A stretch of 10,722 nucleotides of DNA from a virus (Duplodnaviria; Heunggongvirae; Uroviricota; Caudoviricetes). The DNA lies in IMG/VR virus record IMGVR_UViG_2531839662_000041, positions 1 to 10,722 of that record; one strand, written 5' to 3'. The position numbers and the translations under genes are program-made. This document shows, in pieces, positions 1 through 10,722 of this stretch. Under the pieces are notes generated by a model. It ran no database searches. It was given only the letters and a program-made list of their open reading frames with translations, and was not told the DNA's origin. Each line of letters opens with the position of its first letter. The stretch's first letter is position 1.

Positions 1-1701
1 TTAAGGTGTGGGTTGTGCCTCTTTGGTTGAGGGTTGCGTCGTTGCTGACTTAACGGTCGGACGCGTCGCCGGAACATTGTCACACGGTTGCTCTTTCGGG
101 CAGATCAAATCCAGCATTTTCAGCGTCACGCCATTGGTCCAGCCAAAGCCATCCTGTAATGGATATTCGCCACCGCCGCCCCCCGTTCCGGTGGTGCTGA
201 CATCATATTTTTCCACCAGCTTTTTCTCCCGGTCATAGGTGTGCTGAACATTGGTCAGGAAGTGCCAGCTAATGTCCATCGCCACCTCTTTTTGCCCGTA
301 GTTTTGTAATCCTTCTGTCGCGACCCACTGTAACGGTGCCCAGCCATTTGGCGCATCCCATTGTTGCCCACTTTTCACCGACGTGGTGTTCAGGCCGCCG
401 GGTTGCAGCAGATGTGTTTTCGTCGCCGTCGCCATTTTGTTGGCGCGATCTTTCGCTGCCGCATTGACGTACAGCGGGAACAGGGCGGCCGCGGTTAACT
501 GATTGCGCACTTTATGACTTTTCAGGTCGTAATCGGCATACCAGCCTTGTTGATCGTTCCACAGGTATTTTTCGATCCCTTTTTGACGGGCATTTGCCAG
601 CGTTTCGTACTGGTTTGCCATCGCGTTATCTCCGGCAGCTTTGCTGGCGCGGGCGAGGATTTTTTCCATTTTAAACATCAGGCTGTTCAGATCGACCGGT
701 ACGATGCTGGTGGTGCGTAAGGTATTTAACTGCTGCGGGTTGTCCATCCAGCGCGAGCTGAAATCCCAGCCAGACGCAGCGGCAGAGCGCAGGTCGCGGT
801 AAATTTCAGTGGCAGGTCGATTCGGATTGCTTTTGGCGGTGGCAATATCTTCCACCCATGACTCTGGTCGTGGCGTATCGCGATCGTCCCAGTAGCGGTT
901 GAGAAGGGTACCATCCTGAAGTTTGACAACGCGTTTTTCCTGTTGTCCGGCTTGCAGGTTTTCAACACCGTCCATCCAGTAAGCATATTCTTTTTGCATT
1001 TGCGGCAGGTATTGCTTCAACGCGGCATCGCCTTCATGCTGCGCCAGTAACTCTACCATCAGGGCAAAGAAGGGCGGTTGCGAGCGGCTTAAATAGTAAC
1101 TGCGGTTGCCGTTGGGAATATGACCGTAAGTGTCTATTTCATGAGCAAAATTGGCCACCATATTCGCGACTTTATCCCAGTGACCGCTTTCGGCAAGTCC
1201 TAACATGGTGAAGTAACTGTCCCAGTAATATACCTCGCGAAAGCGTCCGCCCGGCACGACATAAGGTTCCGGCAGCGGTAACAGAGAATCCCATTTTTCG
1301 GTGTTTTCGGTAGAACGCGTTAATACCGGCCAAAGTCCGTCAATATGTTCGCGCAGTGACTGCCCCTCTGGCGGAACATATTTCTCGCCTTCTTTCGGCA
1401 GGGTGAAATTGACGTTAACGAAATGGCGCAGATCAAATCCGCTCTGGTTTTGCTGCATCCGATAATCAGCAAGGATCATCAGCGGATCGCTGTTCGGCAC
1501 GGCATCGGCAAAGGTTTTTTGGTCCGGAAAAAGTTTGGCGTTTTGCACATCATTAAACAGCGGCCCTAATAAAATATCAGGCGGCTGTGGTGTTACCGGT
1601 GTTTCTTCTGCCTGCACCGATAGCGCAGCGAAACACAAAAAGATACAGGCTGGAATTAACGCCATTTTTTGCGGGCGAGAAGGTGCGGGGGATTTCATCA
1701 A
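1..1701 (-). CDS. treA: Periplasmic trehalase TreA (complete, 566 aa; stop codon at window bases 1-3)
   Basis: The 566-aa translation begins [30 protein letters not shown], a typical Sec signal peptide, and continues with sequence I recognise as E. coli periplasmic trehalase (GH37), including the Gly-rich [21 protein letters not shown] segment near the C-terminus. Length matches the ~565-aa TreA I recall. Identity is from memory, not a search. Confidence 0.95.
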
Positions 1702-1831
1702 TCATTCTCCTTTGGCGAAACCGAATAAAACGGTATTCAAGTATCAGAAAACCTTAGTTCAGGATCGCACTAGCTGCATGATCGAAATCTCATTCTGCGA
1801 ACTGTCAGGCATTTTAGAAAAGGGAATGTAT

Positions 1832-1853
1832 TGATTCACTTGAAGTACGAAAA
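1832..1853 (+). other. MuA transposase end-binding site L1 (attL)
   Basis: TGATTCACTTGAAGTACGAAAA matches the 22-bp MuA end-site consensus TGNTTCAYTNNAARYRCGAAAA at every specified position, 5 bp in from the TG terminus. Confidence 0.85.
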
Positions 1854-1936
1854 AAACCGGGAGGACATTGGATTATTCGGGATTTGGCGGGATTAGATTT
1901 TGTGGGGCTTGCAAGCCTGTAGGACAGATTTTAGCC

Positions 1937-3104: not shown

Positions 3105-5093
3105 ATGAAAGAATGGTATACAGCAAAAGAGTTGCTCGGTTTGGCAGGTTTACCAAAGCAAGCCACTAACATTACACGTAAGGCACAAAGAGAAGGCTGG
3201 GAGTTCAGGCAGGTTGCAGGGACTAAAGGTGTATCATTTGAATTCAATATCAAATCATTCCCTGTCGCATTACGTGCTGAAATTCTGTTGCAACAAGGGA
3301 GAATTGAAACCAGTCAGGGGTATTTTGAAATCGCCCGCCCCACGCTGGAAGCCCATGATTATGATCGTGAGGCACTGTGGAGCAAATGGGATAACGCCAG
3401 CGATTCCCAGCGCAGACTTGCTGAAAAATGGTTGCCTGCGGTTCAGGCTGCAGACGAAATGCTGAACCAGGGGATTTCAACGAAAACGGCATTTGCGACC
3501 GTTGCAGGACATTACCAGGTCAGCGCATCCACTTTGCGAGACAAATATTACCAGGTACAGAAGTTTGCGAAGCCTGACTGGGCGGCTGCGCTTGTTGATG
3601 GACGTGGTGCATCCCGTCGCAACGTTCACAAAAGTGAATTTGACGAGGATGCCTGGCAGTTTCTGATTGCAGATTATCTGCGACCAGAAAAACCCGCCTT
3701 TCGCAAATGTTATGAGCGTCTGGAACTGGCAGCCCGCGAGCATGGCTGGAGTATTCCCTCCCGTGCCACGGCCTTTCGCCGGATTCAGCAACTGGACGAG
3801 GCAATGGTTGTTGCCTGCCGTGAAGGTGAACATGCACTGATGCATCTGATACCGGCACAGCAGCGAACTGTGGAACACCTGGACGCCATGCAGTGGATCA
3901 ACGGCGACGGTTATCTGCATAACGTCTTTGTACGCTGGTTTAACGGTGATGTGATCCGCCCGAAAACATGGTTCTGGCAGGATGTGAAAACCCGAAAAAT
4001 TCTGGGCTGGCGCTGCGATGTGAGCGAGAACATTGATTCAATTCGCCTCTCGTTCATGGATGTGGTGACACGCTACGGCATCCCGGAAGATTTTCACATC
4101 ACCATTGATAACACCCGTGGGGCAGCGAATAAATGGCTGACGGGGGGCGCGCCCAATCGTTACCGCTTTAAGGTGAAAGAGGACGATCCAAAGGGACTGT
4201 TTTTACTGATGGGCGCGAAAATGCACTGGACAAGCGTTGTTGCCGGTAAAGGCTGGGGCCAGGCAAAACCTGTTGAACGTGCTTTCGGTGTTGGTGGGCT
4301 TGAGGAATACGTTGATAAGCATCCGGCACTGGCTGGCGCATATACGGGGCCAAATCCGCAGGCAAAACCTGATAACTATGGCGACCGTGCTGTTGATGCA
4401 GAGCTGTTTCTGAAAACCCTTGCTGAAGGTGTGGCGATGTTCAATGCCAGAACAGGCCGTGAAACAGAAATGTGCGGGGGCAAACTCTCGTTTGATGATG
4501 TTTTCGAGCGTGAATACGCCAGAACGATTGTGCGTAAGCCAACCGAAGAACAAAAACGGATGCTGTTACTGCCTGCCGAAGCGGTGAACGTTTCACGCAA
4601 AGGCGAGTTTACGCTTAAAGTTGGCGGCTCCCTTAAAGGCGCGAAAAACGTTTATTACAACATGGCGTTAATGAATGCAGGCGTGAAAAAAGTTGTGGTC
4701 AGGTTTGATCCGCAGCAGCTACACAGCACAGTTTATTGCTACACCCTGGACGGTCGGTTTATCTGTGAAGCGGAATGTCTGGCACCTGTTGCATTTAATG
4801 ATGCTGCGGCAGGCCGTGAATATCGCCGCCGCCAGAAACAACTGAAATCTGCAACTAAAGCAGCCATTAAGGCGCAGAAACAAATGGACGCGCTGGAAGT
4901 TGCTGAACTGCTGCCGCAGATAGCCGAACCAGCAGCACCAGAATCAAGGGTTGTTGGTATTTTCCGGCCTGTGGGTAACACAGTACGGGTTAAATATCGC
5001 ACCCCCGATGATAAATACGAACCCGCTCGTGATGAATATCTGAATCAGTCACTGGATATTCTGGAACAGAAAAGACGTAAAAAAGCCATTTAA
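3105..5093 (+). CDS. A: Mu-type DDE transposase A (662 aa)
   Basis: Length is close to MuA (663 aa as I recall). The catalytic DDE triad is visible in conserved context: D268 in [15 protein letters not shown] (codon at 3906-3908), D335 in [14 protein letters not shown] (4107-4109), and E391 in AKPVERAF (4275-4277), matching MuA D269/D336/E392 spacing. The N-terminal winged-helix region is paralogous to the repressor N-terminus. Confidence 0.95.
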
Positions 5094-5131: not shown

Positions 5132-6091
5132 ATGAATATTTCCGATATTCGCGCAGGACTGCGCACGCTTGTAGAAAATGGAGAAACCACGCTGACACGC
5201 ATCGCCAGTGAATCAGGCGTGGCCCTGAGCACAGTCAGTGGTTTTGTGAATGATAAATATAACGGCAACATGGAATCAGTCGGGCGCACACTGGAACGCT
5301 GGCTGGAAAACTATCACCGCGCAGAAGAACTGCCGGAACCCCCGCGTTTTGTGGAAACTGCAACAGCCCGTCAAATCTGGACAAGTATGCGTTTTGCTAA
5401 TCTGACCGGAACCATTGCTGTTATCTGCGGTAATCCAGGAGTGGGTAAAAGCGAAGCAGCCCGTGAATTTTGTCGCACTAATAATAATGTCTGGATGATC
5501 ACCATTGCGCCATCCCGTGCCAGTACGCTGGAATGTCTGACTGAACTTGCCGAAGAGTTGGGAATGAATAATGCACCATGTCGCAAAGGACCGCTTTCCC
5601 GTAACCTGCGTCGCCGCCTGAAAGGAACGCAGGGACTGGTCATTGTTGACGAAGCTGATCACCTTGACACCGAAGCGCTGGAAGAGCTCCGTCTGTTACA
5701 GGAGTCCGCCTGTATTGGTCTTGTTCTGATGGGGAATCACCGTGTTTATTCAAATATGACCGCTAATGGCGACAGAACAATTGAGTTTGCCCGTCTGTTT
5801 TCCCGTATTGCAAAGCGCACAGCAATTAATAAAACCAAAGAAGACGATGTAAACGCAATTGCGGATGCCTGGCAGATTACCGGGAAAAATGAACGGGAAT
5901 TATTACAGCAGATTGCACAAACGCCTGGTGCGCTCCGCATTATGAATCAAACGCTGCGCCTTGCTGTTATGAATGCCTTCGGTAAAGGCGAACGTGTTAA
6001 TGAGGATTATCTGCGTGAGGCTTACAAAGAGTTAGACCAGGACGTTGATGTTTCGATGCTGCTGGGTGTGCAAGGGGATGCTGAATCATGA
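5132..6091 (+). CDS. B: Mu B-type AAA+ ATPase (target DNA activator for transposition), 319 aa
   Basis: N-terminus [16 protein letters not shown] and most of the protein closely match MuB as I recall it. Walker A GNPGVGKS and Walker [11 protein letters not shown] are present. GAGG Shine-Dalgarno 8 nt upstream of the ATG. Confidence 0.95.
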
Positions 6092-6637: not shown

Positions 6638-7057
6638 ATGAAAGCCAAAATCAGAAACGAAATTCAGGCATTAATTCGGATTAAAGAGCGTAATAGCAAT
6701 GGTGGAGACTTGCGCGAATTTATTTGCGCGCGCGAAGTTGAGGGATATGGCGAAAAGACTTACCTGATTGCATTCGACCATTACAGCATTTGTGCGCGTT
6801 ATTGCGGGGAGGCGGTATTCCGCGCCATTACGTTTGGCAATGCCTTCAATGTGGATTTATGGGAATACGTCATGGACCGTGAATACATCAGCGCGTCAGA
6901 CCCGGACGCACGGGAGCAGTGGCAGAACATCTGGCGCGATTACCGGCAAATGGCGAAAGGCTGGACGCAGGGGACGTATTCTTCCCTTGCCCTGAAAGCG
7001 GTTCAGTTATCGCTGCGGCATGTTCCGTCAGTACGGTTTGAACTTGCGGTGCACTGA
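6638..7057 (+). CDS. Hypothetical early-region protein (139 aa), Cys/His-containing
   Basis: ATG start with GGAA 8 nt upstream. It sits in the same-strand operon-like run between B and gam. Contains a C-x-...-HYSICARYCGE cluster that might bind a metal. Function unknown. Confidence 0.55.
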   Translation: MKAKIRNEIQALIRIKERNSNGGDLREFICAREVEGYGEKTYLIAFDHYSICARYCGEAVFRAITFGNAFNVDLWEYVMDREYISASDPDAREQWQNIWRDYRQMAKGWTQGTYSSLALKAVQLSLRHVPSVRFELAVH

Positions 7058-7074
7058 TACAGGAGGGCGACATC

Positions 7075-7363
7075 ATGATACCCCCTCGTAAAAGATGGTC
7101 ACGTGAAGACCGGGAATTTATCGAAGCCAGTGTCGGGAAAATGACTGTTGAAGAAATGGCGAAAAAAACTGAACGTTGCCCCAACCGCCCTACAGGCACA
7201 TGCCAGAAGACACGGAATATCGTTGTGTGCATACCGGGTCAGTGAGCACGACAAATATTTGTGTCGTGAACTTTATAAAGAAGGGCTGGATATTCATGTC
7301 ATTACCCAAAAGATGGAATTAAGCAATCGTGCTGTATCCAGCATTGTATACAGCGAATATTAA
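7075..7363 (+). pseudogene. Frameshifted (or slippage-dependent) helix-turn-helix early gene: frame 1 (7075-7248) and frame 2 (to 7363) join at an A7 tract (7162-7168)
   Basis: A strong AGGAGG Shine-Dalgarno 8 nt upstream of the ATG at 7075 opens a reading frame giving MIPPRKRWSREDREFIEASVGKMTVEEMAKK, after which the translation becomes unprotein-like (TERCPNRPTGTCQKTRNIVVCIPGQ) and stops at 7248. The +1 frame from the A7 run gives LNVAPTALQAHARRHGISLCAYRVSEHDKYLCRELYKEGLDIHVITQKMELSNRAVSSIVYSEY. Joined, ...TVEEMAKKLNVAPTALQAHARRHGISL forms a textbook helix-turn-helix. Removing one A from the A7 run restores a single ~95-aa ORF. Confidence 0.6.
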
Positions 7364-7383: not shown

Positions 7384-7908
7384 ATGGCTAAACCAGCAAA
7401 ACGAATCAAGAATGCCGCAGCGGCTTATGTTCCACAGTCCCGCGATGCCGTGGTATGTGATATCCGCCGGATTGGTGACCTGCAACGCGAAGCGGCACGA
7501 CTTGAAACGGAAATGAATGACGCTATCGCTGAAATTACAGAGAAATACGCCTCACAGATTGCGCCGCTAAAAACCAGTATCGAAACCCTTTCAAAAGGCG
7601 TTCAGGGATGGTGTGAAGCGAACCGTGACGAACTGACGAACGGCGGCAAGGTGAAGACGGCGAACCTGGTAACCGGCGATGTGTCATGGCGTCAGCGCCC
7701 ACCATCGGTAAGTATTCGCGGTGTGGATGCGGTGATGGAAACACTGGAGCGTCTTGGCCTGCAACGCTTTATTCGCACGAAACAGGAAATCAACAAGGAA
7801 GCGATTTTACTGGAACCGAAAGCGGTCGCAGGTGTTGCCGGAATTACAGTTAAATCAGGCATTGAAGATTTTTCTATTATTCCGTTTGAACAGGAAGCCG
7901 GTATTTAA
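7384..7908 (+). CDS. gam: Gam, host-nuclease inhibitor / DNA-end-binding protein (Ku-like), 174 aa
   Basis: The translation MAKPAKRIKNAAAAYVPQSRDAV ... LETEMNDAIAEITEKYA ... GWCEANRDELTNGGKVKTANLVTGDVSWR ... FSIIPFEQEAGI is near-identical to Mu Gam as I recall it, and the same length (174 aa). AGGAG Shine-Dalgarno upstream. Confidence 0.93.
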   Translation: MAKPAKRIKNAAAAYVPQSRDAVVCDIRRIGDLQREAARLETEMNDAIAEITEKYASQIAPLKTSIETLSKGVQGWCEANRDELTNGGKVKTANLVTGDVSWRQRPPSVSIRGVDAVMETLERLGLQRFIRTKQEINKEAILLEPKAVAGVAGITVKSGIEDFSIIPFEQEAGI

Positions 7909-7950
7909 TATCACCATTAATATTTAATTAGTTCACTTTCTTTTAATTAT

Positions 7951-7980
7951 GGCGCGATGCGTCAGGGGATTGCTCGCGCC
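7951..7980. repeat. Inverted repeat GGCGCGA ... TCGCGCC (7-bp arms, 16-nt spacer) in the gam-downstream intergenic region
   Basis: Read directly from the sequence. No T-tract follows, so it is not a canonical intrinsic terminator. It could be an RNA stem-loop or a protein-binding site. Confidence 0.5.
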
Positions 7981-8006
7981 TGAAACAGATTACTGAGGAA
8001 TAAAAA

Positions 8007-8546
8007 ATGGTTGATGCAAAAGTTCTGAACGGTGTCAGTACATTATTACGGGCTTACGGACGTCTGACCTGTGGCGTTCTGGCGGAAAAAATGAATATGC
8101 CACCTTCTTCAATGGTGTATTTCCTGCGTGATGCGGTTGATGCCGGAGTTCTCACTGAATGCAACGGATTTTATGACGTTCCGCGCCCTCGTCCGACGCC
8201 GCCAGTAAGACGAAACGCAACGGAGCACCCCGCTGTTGATGATGCTCAATGGTGCGCTTTCCGCCGCTCTTTGCCCTGGCTGGAAGGCAATGCCATTCCG
8301 GCACTGGCAAAAGAATTTGCGACAGGCGTACTGACCTGCGAGTCGGTTTACATCGTTGCTGAAGTGGATGACGAGATGTGCAAACAGGGGATGCCCCGTT
8401 TTGTGATGGCGTATATCGATATCCGACTGGGACGTTTTATTTGTGGCTCCAGTGGCTGGAATATCACCGACCACGTCCTGCGCTATCTCATTCTTGATTA
8501 TTCACCGGTTCCGGCGGCAACACAGGATGTCAGCGAGCATGGTTAA
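8007..8546 (+). CDS. Hypothetical early-region protein (179 aa) with an N-terminal winged-helix-like segment and a Pro/Arg-rich linker
   Basis: ATG with GAGGAA Shine-Dalgarno 6 nt upstream. The N-terminal LRAYGRLTCGVLAEKMNMPPSSMVYFLRDAVDAGVLTE resembles a MarR/Lrp-type winged helix, followed by a PRPRPTPPVRR linker. Function unknown. Confidence 0.6.
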   Translation: MVDAKVLNGVSTLLRAYGRLTCGVLAEKMNMPPSSMVYFLRDAVDAGVLTECNGFYDVPRPRPTPPVRRNATEHPAVDDAQWCAFRRSLPWLEGNAIPALAKEFATGVLTCESVYIVAEVDDEMCKQGMPRFVMAYIDIRLGRFICGSSGWNITDHVLRYLILDYSPVPAATQDVSEHG

Positions 8547-9632: not shown

Positions 9633-10078
9633 AACAGATGAAAGAGCAGGATTTGTTCGAAGACCTTCGGGACGACAGCGTTCTGGAATATCTTCATGAT
9701 TACCAGGAAAACACCGCTTATCCGGCGTTACTTTCTGAACTGAACGCACTGCTGCGTAAAGAGCTGGCCCGGATTGGCGCAGACCCTGCCCATTCCCTTG
9801 AGCTGGTTGTGGCGATTTGTCGCCATATCGGCGGGATGCAGGTTTATGTTCCGAGGGGGAATATTCTGGAGAATCTTGTCCGGGATATGCGTATCTGGCG
9901 TGATTTTAACGGCCATAATATTCCTGAACTGGTTCAGCGTTACGGGGTGACGTATAAAACCGTCTACAAGGCCATCAAACGGATGCGACGTCTGGAGCGC
10001 AATAAATACCAGCCGGATTTGTTTTACCTCTCCCCGAACCTGCCTCACCCCGTTCGTCGTCCGCCACGACGCCCTTAA
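9629..10078 (+). CDS. mor: Mor-family middle-operon transcriptional activator (149 aa)
   Basis: DLFEDLRDDSVLEYL ... PALLSELNALLRKELARIGADPAHSLELVVAICRHIGGMQVYVPRG ... RDFNGHNIPELVQRYGVTYKTVYKAIKRMRRL parallels Mu Mor as I recall it (DLFGDLQDDTILAHL ... PALLAELNDLLRGELSRLGVDPAHSLEIVVAICKHLGGGQVYIPRG ... VYKAIRRMRRL). It has a C-terminal HTH. ATG overlaps the gemA stop. Confidence 0.9.
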   Translation: MKQMKEQDLFEDLRDDSVLEYLHDYQENTAYPALLSELNALLRKELARIGADPAHSLELVVAICRHIGGMQVYVPRGNILENLVRDMRIWRDFNGHNIPELVQRYGVTYKTVYKAIKRMRRLERNKYQPDLFYLSPNLPHPVRRPPRRP

Positions 10079-10084
10079 TCAATG

Positions 10085-10108
10085 AAGCCGGTAAATCCGG
10101 CTTTTTTT
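10085..10108 (+). terminator. Putative rho-independent terminator downstream of mor
   Basis: Stem AAGCCGG (10085-10091) pairs with CCGGCTT (10097-10103) around a TAAAT loop, followed by a 7-T run (10102-10108), 7 bp after the mor stop codon. In Mu the early transcript terminates after mor. Confidence 0.7.
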
Positions 10109-10164
10109 ATGCCTCCGGCACCATGAAGCAGACCACGTTTAACTCTGCTTCACAGGTGCTTTTT

Positions 10165-10722
10165 ATGGAAAATCTAAAATTATATCTGGCCTTTGAGCGT
10201 GCGCTGAATTTTATTCTGCGTCCTGATATCGAAGGCGTCTATGTCAATGACCCCACTGACCGTGGCGGAGAAACCAGGTACGGCATCTCTGACCGCCGCG
10301 ACGGTGTGATTGACGGCAAAACTGACGTCAACGGTGATGGTAAACCCGACACCCGCATTAAGGATTTTACCCGCGAACAGGTTGCGCAGATTTACTGGCG
10401 CGATTACTGGCTGCCTGCCGGGTGTGACCAGTGGCCTGACAGAGTGGCGCTTTTTGTGTTCGATGCGGCGGTTCAGCATGGTGTTAAAAAAGCCATCAAA
10501 CTTTTGCAGGAAGCCACTGATATCAATGCCGATGGCATCATCGGCCCGCGCACCCGCAGGGCCGTGAACCTGGCTGACCAGAACTGGTTGCTGACCCGCT
10601 GTATTGTCCGTCGTTCCCGCTTTTATGCCGAAATCATCAAATCAAAACCCGCCCAGGGCAAATACCTGAACGGCTGGTTTAACCGCATGGAAAAACTGAC
10701 CGACGCCTGTCTGGAAATCATC
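10165..10722 (+). CDS. GH108-family lysozyme-like protein with peptidoglycan-binding domain (5' partial; 186 codons, runs off the window)
   Basis: Not in the supplied ORF track because no stop codon occurs before the window end. The ATG at 10165 has AGGTG upstream. The translation MENLKLYLAFERALNFILRPDIEGVYVNDPTDRGGETRYGIS ... DFTREQVAQIYWRDYWLPAGCDQWPDRVALFVFDAAVQHGVKKAIKLLQEATDINADGIIGPRTRRAV carries the GH108 signature (EGGY-like VNDP-DRGG-T-YGI, FD-AVN-G) and the PG_binding_3 motif (DGIIGP-T). I translated all 186 codons by hand and found no stop. Confidence 0.8.
   Translation, partial: MENLKLYLAFERALNFILRPDIEGVYVNDPTDRGGETRYGISDRRDGVIDGKTDVNGDGKPDTRIKDFTREQVAQIYWRDYWLPAGCDQWPDRVALFVFDAAVQHGVKKAIKLLQEATDINADGIIGPRTRRAVNLADQNWLLTRCIVRRSRFYAEIIKSKPAQGKYLNGWFNRMEKLTDACLEII

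Follow-up and report, generated by a model that had tools for sequence, protein, structure and literature searches.

A reading frame in the early region of a Mu-like prophage is well formed up to a run of seven adenines (A7), where a plausible continuation is taken up in another frame. This locus raises the question of whether the run reflects a sequencing error, a site of programmed recoding, a switch, or a mutation that has inactivated the gene while the phage itself lived on.

A split early gene in a Mu-like prophage of E. coli UMNF18

The window, i.e., the whole stretch of 10,722 nucleotides analyzed here, was 100% identical to positions 1459222 to 1469943 of the Escherichia coli UMNF18 chromosome (NZ_AGTD01000001.1). 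It contains the host gene treA (1 to 1701, minus strand), followed by a Mu/D108-like prophage whose left end (TGTATTGATTCACTTGAAGTACGAAAAAAACCGGG, 1827 to 1861, plus strand) is separated from the start of treA by approximately 125 bp of upstream sequence. The prophage sequence starting at 1827 reads TGTATTGATTCACTTGAAGTACG..., and this boundary could be placed exactly, with homology to the other A7-carrying prophages described below beginning at 1827 and their upstream host flanks differing from that of the window. The other A7 run of the window lies within the left-end sequence (1850 to 1856). Since the left end sits inside the treA upstream region, treA expression could be affected.

The gene order of the prophage is c (repressor), ner, A, B, kil, a gp7-like gene, a gp8-like gene, the split gene, gam, gp11 and following genes, gemA and mor, and apart from the split gene its early region is intact. 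The upstream neighbor of the split gene is a gp8 (E7) homolog of 139 amino acids (6638 to 7057, plus strand; WP_000644790.1 in UMNF18), which has the same position as Mup08 in Mu. Directly downstream is gam, encoding the host-nuclease inhibitor (7384 to 7908, plus strand; its counterparts in related loci match PF07352), in agreement with an earlier note on this DNA that had placed the split gene just upstream of gam. The split gene belongs to the early "semi-essential" region, whose genes in Mu have been described as mostly uncharacterized (PMC3820752).

A ribosome-binding site, AGGAGG (7061 to 7066, plus strand), lies 8 nt ahead of the ATG at 7075. The frame-1 open reading frame that starts there (7075 to 7245, plus strand) encodes 56 amino acids, consisting of 31 authentic residues (MIPPRKRW...EEMAKK) and 25 out-of-frame residues (TERCPNRPTGTCQKTRNIVVCIPGQ). 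The description of this frame in the earlier note, as protein-like for 31 residues and implausible afterwards, was borne out by the sequence; the stop codon also exists, but the position given for it, 7248, was three bases off, the TGA being at 7243 to 7245. The A7 run (7162 to 7168, plus strand) covers residues 30 and 31, which are Lys-Lys when in frame, and coincides with the end of helix 2 in a predicted first helix-turn-helix (HTH). From 7169, frame 2 begins LNVAPTALQAHARRHGISL... and continues (LNVAPTALQ...VYSEY) to the TAA at 7361 to 7363 (plus strand), and this part holds the entire predicted HTH2 together with the recognition helix of HTH1. In RefSeq, the complete 289-nt gene (7075 to 7363, plus strand) is the pseudogene UMNF18_RS34070, with the PGAP note "frameshifted."

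The two frames form one homolog of Mu gp9

When one A of the run was deleted, a 95-amino-acid product was obtained, with EEMAKKLNVAPTALQ as the peptide spanning the junction. This joined product was identical at 93 of 95 positions (98%) to the intact protein WP_235411756.1 of strain STEC346, gapless across the junction, and at 82 of 95 positions (86%) to phage Mu gp9, again gapless (E = 8e-62). As judged by these alignments, the match to intact homologs is far beyond chance, and the two pieces are one gene broken at the A7 run, as the earlier note had proposed. At the DNA level, the extra A was the sole indel within the gp9 gene between the window and STEC346. At the same place the run is A6 in STEC346 and GAAAAA (Glu-Lys) in Mu, which are the two states, A6 or an interrupted run, that had been predicted for intact homologs. 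The single intact frame of about 95 to 99 codons expected of the Mu gp9/E8 family is thus missing in the window copy.

The joined protein also matched PHROG 323 ("transcriptional regulator, D5-like") with an E value of 1.2e-26, and by sequence comparison the split gene is a homolog of Mu gp9 (E8) and a pseudogene member of this family. Mu gp9 (Mup09, NP_050613.1, formerly E8) and its orthologs in D108 and SfMu are likewise located between gp8 and gam. The Mu protein differs from the window copy in that its annotated start is four codons further upstream, giving 99 amino acids, in that its run is GAAAAA, and in that its frame is unbroken. Two close relatives, WP_235411756.1 (STEC346) and WP_000586546.1 (from UMNF18 itself), are in frame with A6 and have Ala72 and Ala77, whereas the window allele has Asp72 and Thr77.

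Predicted fold of the gp9 product

In a Pfam search with the joined protein, all HTH-type hits fell below the gathering thresholds, the best being HTH_Tnp_1 (19.1 versus 24.1 bits), and a sequence search of the PDB gave nothing significant (E ≥ 0.06). AlphaFold2 was run on the intact homolog P0002 (88% identical) with 10 relatives. The resulting model (mean pLDDT 80.7) predicted a linker connecting two three-helix bundles, with helices at residues 10 to 19, 25 to 32 and 36 to 45 and at residues 57 to 68, 73 to 79 and 84 to 93. A Foldseek search of the PDB with this model returned no match at E ≤ 0.001; the best one, to the DNA-binding domain of Tc3 transposase (1u78), was weak (E = 0.025, TM 0.40). 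Like the predicted gp9 bundles, 1u78, CENP-B and the C-terminal domains of AraC-type proteins have a bipartite, tandem HTH arrangement, and the resemblance is at the level of fold only. A tandem-HTH DNA-binding protein is a reasonable prediction from the model, and not a demonstrated family membership. The earlier description of the product as an HTH early protein is therefore plausible from the predicted three-helix fold, although no curated HTH family scored above threshold.

The frame-1 product keeps helices 1 and 2 of the predicted first HTH and is without its recognition helix and without any of the second domain, and the A7 allele would for this reason be effectively null. The idea that the 56-amino-acid product is itself functional was considered and dropped, given that its last 25 residues are out of frame and the recognition helix is absent. 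A literature search for Mup09 returned nothing relevant, and no experimental test of the function of the PHROG 323/Mu gp9 family was found in the literature.

The A7 allele is shared by distinct genomes

Eleven further contigs, from NCBI and Logan assemblies, encode exactly the same 56-amino-acid frame-1 product. The NCBI carriers were GCA_047262285.1 (two copies), GCA_036681295.1, GCA_002516985.1 and GCA_002231075.1, while the Logan carriers came from five separate SRA runs (SRR18572830 and those ending in 800, 793, 839 and 853). All fetched loci carrying this product had the A7 run, and the allele was thus present in at least nine samples besides UMNF18. As host neighbor, the prophage has treA in the window, whereas L014 lies beside btuR, L016 on the side of ydhT, L017 beside the eut operon and L015 beside rihA/hscC. 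The A7 prophages share the left end found at 1827 of the window, yet they occupy at least four chromosomal sites; L015 has a different left arm. Given these different host sites, the carriers are distinct genomes.

The gp9 region was identical across the A7 copies except for L010, where two downstream codons keep the consensus Ala/Ala. The near-identical A7 prophages differed only in clustered mosaic patches. In comparison with L014 to L017, these patches were located at 7911 to 8148, 4580 to 4937 and 10029 to 10722 of the window, comprising the spacer between gam and gp11 together with the gp11 start, part of A, and the post-mor region with the start of the lysis gene, respectively. Such dense patches look typical of mosaic recombination and not of clock-like divergence.

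These carriers bear on one of the options raised in the earlier note, namely that A7 in UMNF18 is a homopolymer error of sequencing or assembly and that the true gene has A6 and is intact. The A7 allele is indeed one base off the closest intact allele, UMNF18 was the sole A7 case among the 60 complete E. coli genome matches listed, and one of the carriers, GCA_047262285.1, has extra 1-bp G-run deletions that resemble assembly errors. However, four further NCBI assemblies and the Logan assemblies of five SRA runs have the same allele, coming from different genomes with the prophage at different host sites, and the paralogous run in a second prophage of UMNF18 reads A6 in the very same assembly. 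With identical A7 runs in nine or more further samples, and with the prophage at different chromosomal sites, this option was refuted, and we consider it extremely unlikely that the UMNF18 run is an artifact. A literature search for the sequencing method used for UMNF18 returned nothing relevant, and the platform is in any case moot, since independent assemblies show the same allele. The flag on UMNF18_RS34070 is the one that PGAP gives to other "frameshifted" homopolymer pseudogenes; here it marks a provably real allele that a still-mobile phage has passed on, and not an error in reading a homopolymer.

State of the A-run in other alleles

The shifted state was rare. Among the best 60 places listed from complete E. 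coli genomes, an 80-nt query covered 79 nt at 59 places and the full 80 nt in UMNF18 alone. All 35 IMG/VR contigs were in frame (27 with GAAAAA and 8 with AAAAAA), and a run one base longer or shorter was not found among them. The gp9 homologs on metagenome contigs were likewise all in frame (14/14), nine of them with GAAAAA. The interrupted run GAAAAA was accordingly the majority allele, at 36 of 49 loci (27/35 in IMG/VR and 9/14 in the metagenomes). Within the A7 lineage, 14/14 loci were still A7, with no reversion seen.

Across alleles the run was observed as A6, A7, GA5 and GA6, and only insertions were seen. An independent A7 had arisen in a different A6 allele (MMCNRKRW..., L019 to L021, three assemblies), carried by a Mu-like prophage with a different transposase, and an independent +1A was present in the Mu-type allele L022, where GAAAAAA replaces GAAAAA. 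In both alleles the downstream frame runs on to the normal stop. Furthermore, a 32-amino-acid product ending AKKN-stop would fit an A8 run, a length deduced from the product alone. Comparison of these alleles shows the A-run to be a hot spot of replication slippage, with independent +1A insertions in other alleles, and thus a recurrent mutation site in gp9. Slippage would be expected to act in this way on a gene that is dispensable, of which this is the longest run.

Other disrupted homologs (P0019, P0021 and P0032) were broken elsewhere in the gene. In P0021 (95 amino acids), residues 4 to 20 are in an alternative frame (VKDGHVKTGNLSKPVS) and are followed by the normal frame, which looks like a compensated frameshift pair in the N-terminal part. 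Frameshifts also affect a neighboring gene: in STEC346 (L002), the prophage with the closest intact gp9, a gp7-like gene at 848 to 1118 of that locus is flagged "frameshifted" by PGAP, indicating that single-gene frameshifts in the early region are not rare. When a collection holding one genome per species was scanned with the A7 24-mer, only an unrelated, uninformative in-frame match was obtained. This exact 24-nt match (L004, 6087 to 6110) lies in an alphaproteobacterial MAG (CAWJOY010000026.1), in frame within a 177-amino-acid open reading frame (...VEEMAKKTEAGG...) that has no other similarity to gp9, and it is probably a coincidence caused by a common peptide motif.

Recoding, switching and selective loss as alternatives

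A frame that remains open behind the run could in principle be reached by programmed recoding, either through a +1 ribosomal frameshift on AAA-AAA-A or through RNA polymerase dropping one A, so that gp9 would remain functional at a set low level. On a reading of the sequence, the P-site tRNA-Lys on GCG AAA AAA ACU re-pairs perfectly in the +1 frame, a property that is necessary and not sufficient for such a shift; moreover, none of the shifted alleles has a stop in the downstream frame before the normal one, and the A7 phage lineage has been evolutionarily successful. The out-of-frame arrangement is, however, not conserved, nearly all homologs being in frame. In the zero frame the run is followed by ACU, which is not a stop codon and is not rare or slow either, no GGAGG-like (Shine-Dalgarno-like) element was found within approximately 90 nt upstream of the run, and RNA folding was no better than that of shuffled sequence (z = +0.8 downstream and +1.1 upstream). 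The run is also too short for transcriptional slippage: with out-of-frame reporters, slippage by E. coli RNA polymerase was undetectable below A8 or T7, and deletion on poly(A) never gave rescue (PMC6260861).

Rescue by poly(A) slippage in IS elements, in endosymbiont frameshifts and in Citrobacter tssM likewise concerns a gene that is divided at an A-run into two halves in different frames, both of them open. The tracts in those cases are longer, typically 9 or more. In UMNF18, unlike in these systems, the run is A7, a deletion-type slip on poly(A) would be required, and the arrangement is not conserved. Two shifted lineages, in addition, had substitutions at invariant downstream residues: A77T in the window lineage, at a position that is Ala in 51/51 in-frame loci examined, and S83R in the L019 lineage, with Arg at an otherwise invariant Ser. 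These substitutions, which are two events only in lineages of little divergence, point to relaxed constraint and not to continued translation. Given that the shifted state is rare and shallow, that a stimulator was not found and that A7 is below the slipping length, the earlier suggestion of slippage or +1 frameshifting acting as a phase-variable switch is unsupported, and programmed recoding of gp9 appears very unlikely to us. A small amount of full-length gp9 may nevertheless be made by spontaneous +1 slippage of tRNA-Lys on AAA-AAA-A.

Switching could also be placed in the DNA itself, with the A-run serving as a contingency ON/OFF switch through replication slippage, or the loss of gp9 could be adaptive. 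In the latter variant, OFF alleles would benefit the phage or the lysogen, for example through escape from a gp9-sensing host system or through relief of toxicity. In line with this, at least three independent +1A events were counted at the same run in divergent alleles, to which the product fitting A8 can be added, the A7 lineage has reached at least four sites, and A6 is kept in many alleles though Mu tolerates GAAAAA. Against it, A6 and A7 are shorter than typical phase-variable tracts, none of the 14 A7-lineage loci has reverted, the OFF alleles are a small minority beside a majority allele in IMG/VR and metagenomes whose run is interrupted, and P0019, P0021 and P0032 are broken at other places. 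The overall pattern is consistent with plain mutational bias. Phase variation was not assigned, given a run too short and OFF alleles too rare and too stable for it. We regard a switch or adaptive loss as unlikely. The more specific proposal, that the Lys-Lys run is a mutational ON/OFF point whose OFF alleles are spreading since gp9 loss helps the phage or lysogen, is quite unlikely, but if true it would explain both the repeated +1A hits at one site and the presence of the mutant lineage in several strains and sites. Repeated hits on the run and spread of the mutant could reflect selection for loss and not neutrality.

Probable loss of gp9 in a prophage lineage that stayed mobile

We consider it likely that the split gene carries a heritable +1A frameshift, which inactivates a dispensable tandem-HTH Mu gp9 early gene in a still-mobile prophage lineage. 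A single A would have been inserted into the Lys-Lys run of gp9 (A6 to A7) by replication slippage, and the ribosome would be shifted out of frame after residue 31, with the product ending 25 codons later and the allele presumably null. If gp9 is dispensable for transposition and lysogenization, the mutant lineage would have stayed mobile. The simplest history would be one A6-to-A7 event, after which the phage reached further sites and strains, the different sites being those found for the carriers above.

The same A7 allele in near-identical prophages at at least four sites indicates that the phage lineage kept moving after the mutation, and the A7 mutation does not seem to preclude an active Mu-type life cycle, or at the minimum transposition. 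The genuine inactivating frameshift that was among the options of the earlier note is thereby retained, whereas its attribution to prophage decay was overstated: the early region is otherwise intact, and integration at new sites continued after the mutation. The frameshift was already flagged in public annotation (UMNF18_RS34070) and is an ordinary kind of mutation. Loss of Mu gp9/E8 would then leave a Mu-like phage able to integrate at new sites, and the allele offers a small natural-knockout hint for the study of the uncharacterized semi-essential early genes of Mu, with little reach beyond annotation.

UMNF18 carries a second Mu-like prophage (L058, chromosome positions 3084756 to 3099063), which is inserted in yphC and has no gp8 homolog. 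Its gp9 (6990 to 7277 of that locus, WP_000586546.1) is intact, encodes 95 amino acids and has A6, with 10 differences from the window copy over 288 nt. This gene could complement the broken copy in trans, and such a supply from the second prophage would weaken the case for dispensability as far as it is drawn from UMNF18 alone.

One of the other carriers, GCA_047262285.1, showed two further features. The 1-bp G-run deletions in this genome, at positions corresponding to 6553 and 6970 of the window, break gp7 and gp8 and may be assembly errors. The genome also contains, besides a full copy of the A7 prophage (L016), a hybrid Mu-like prophage (L015, 1390803 to 1406973) with a different repressor, ner, A (695 amino acids) and B. 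From position 6084 of the window onwards, L015 is homologous to the window and carries the same A7 gp9 and downstream genes, an arrangement that suggests recombination between co-resident Mu-like prophages.
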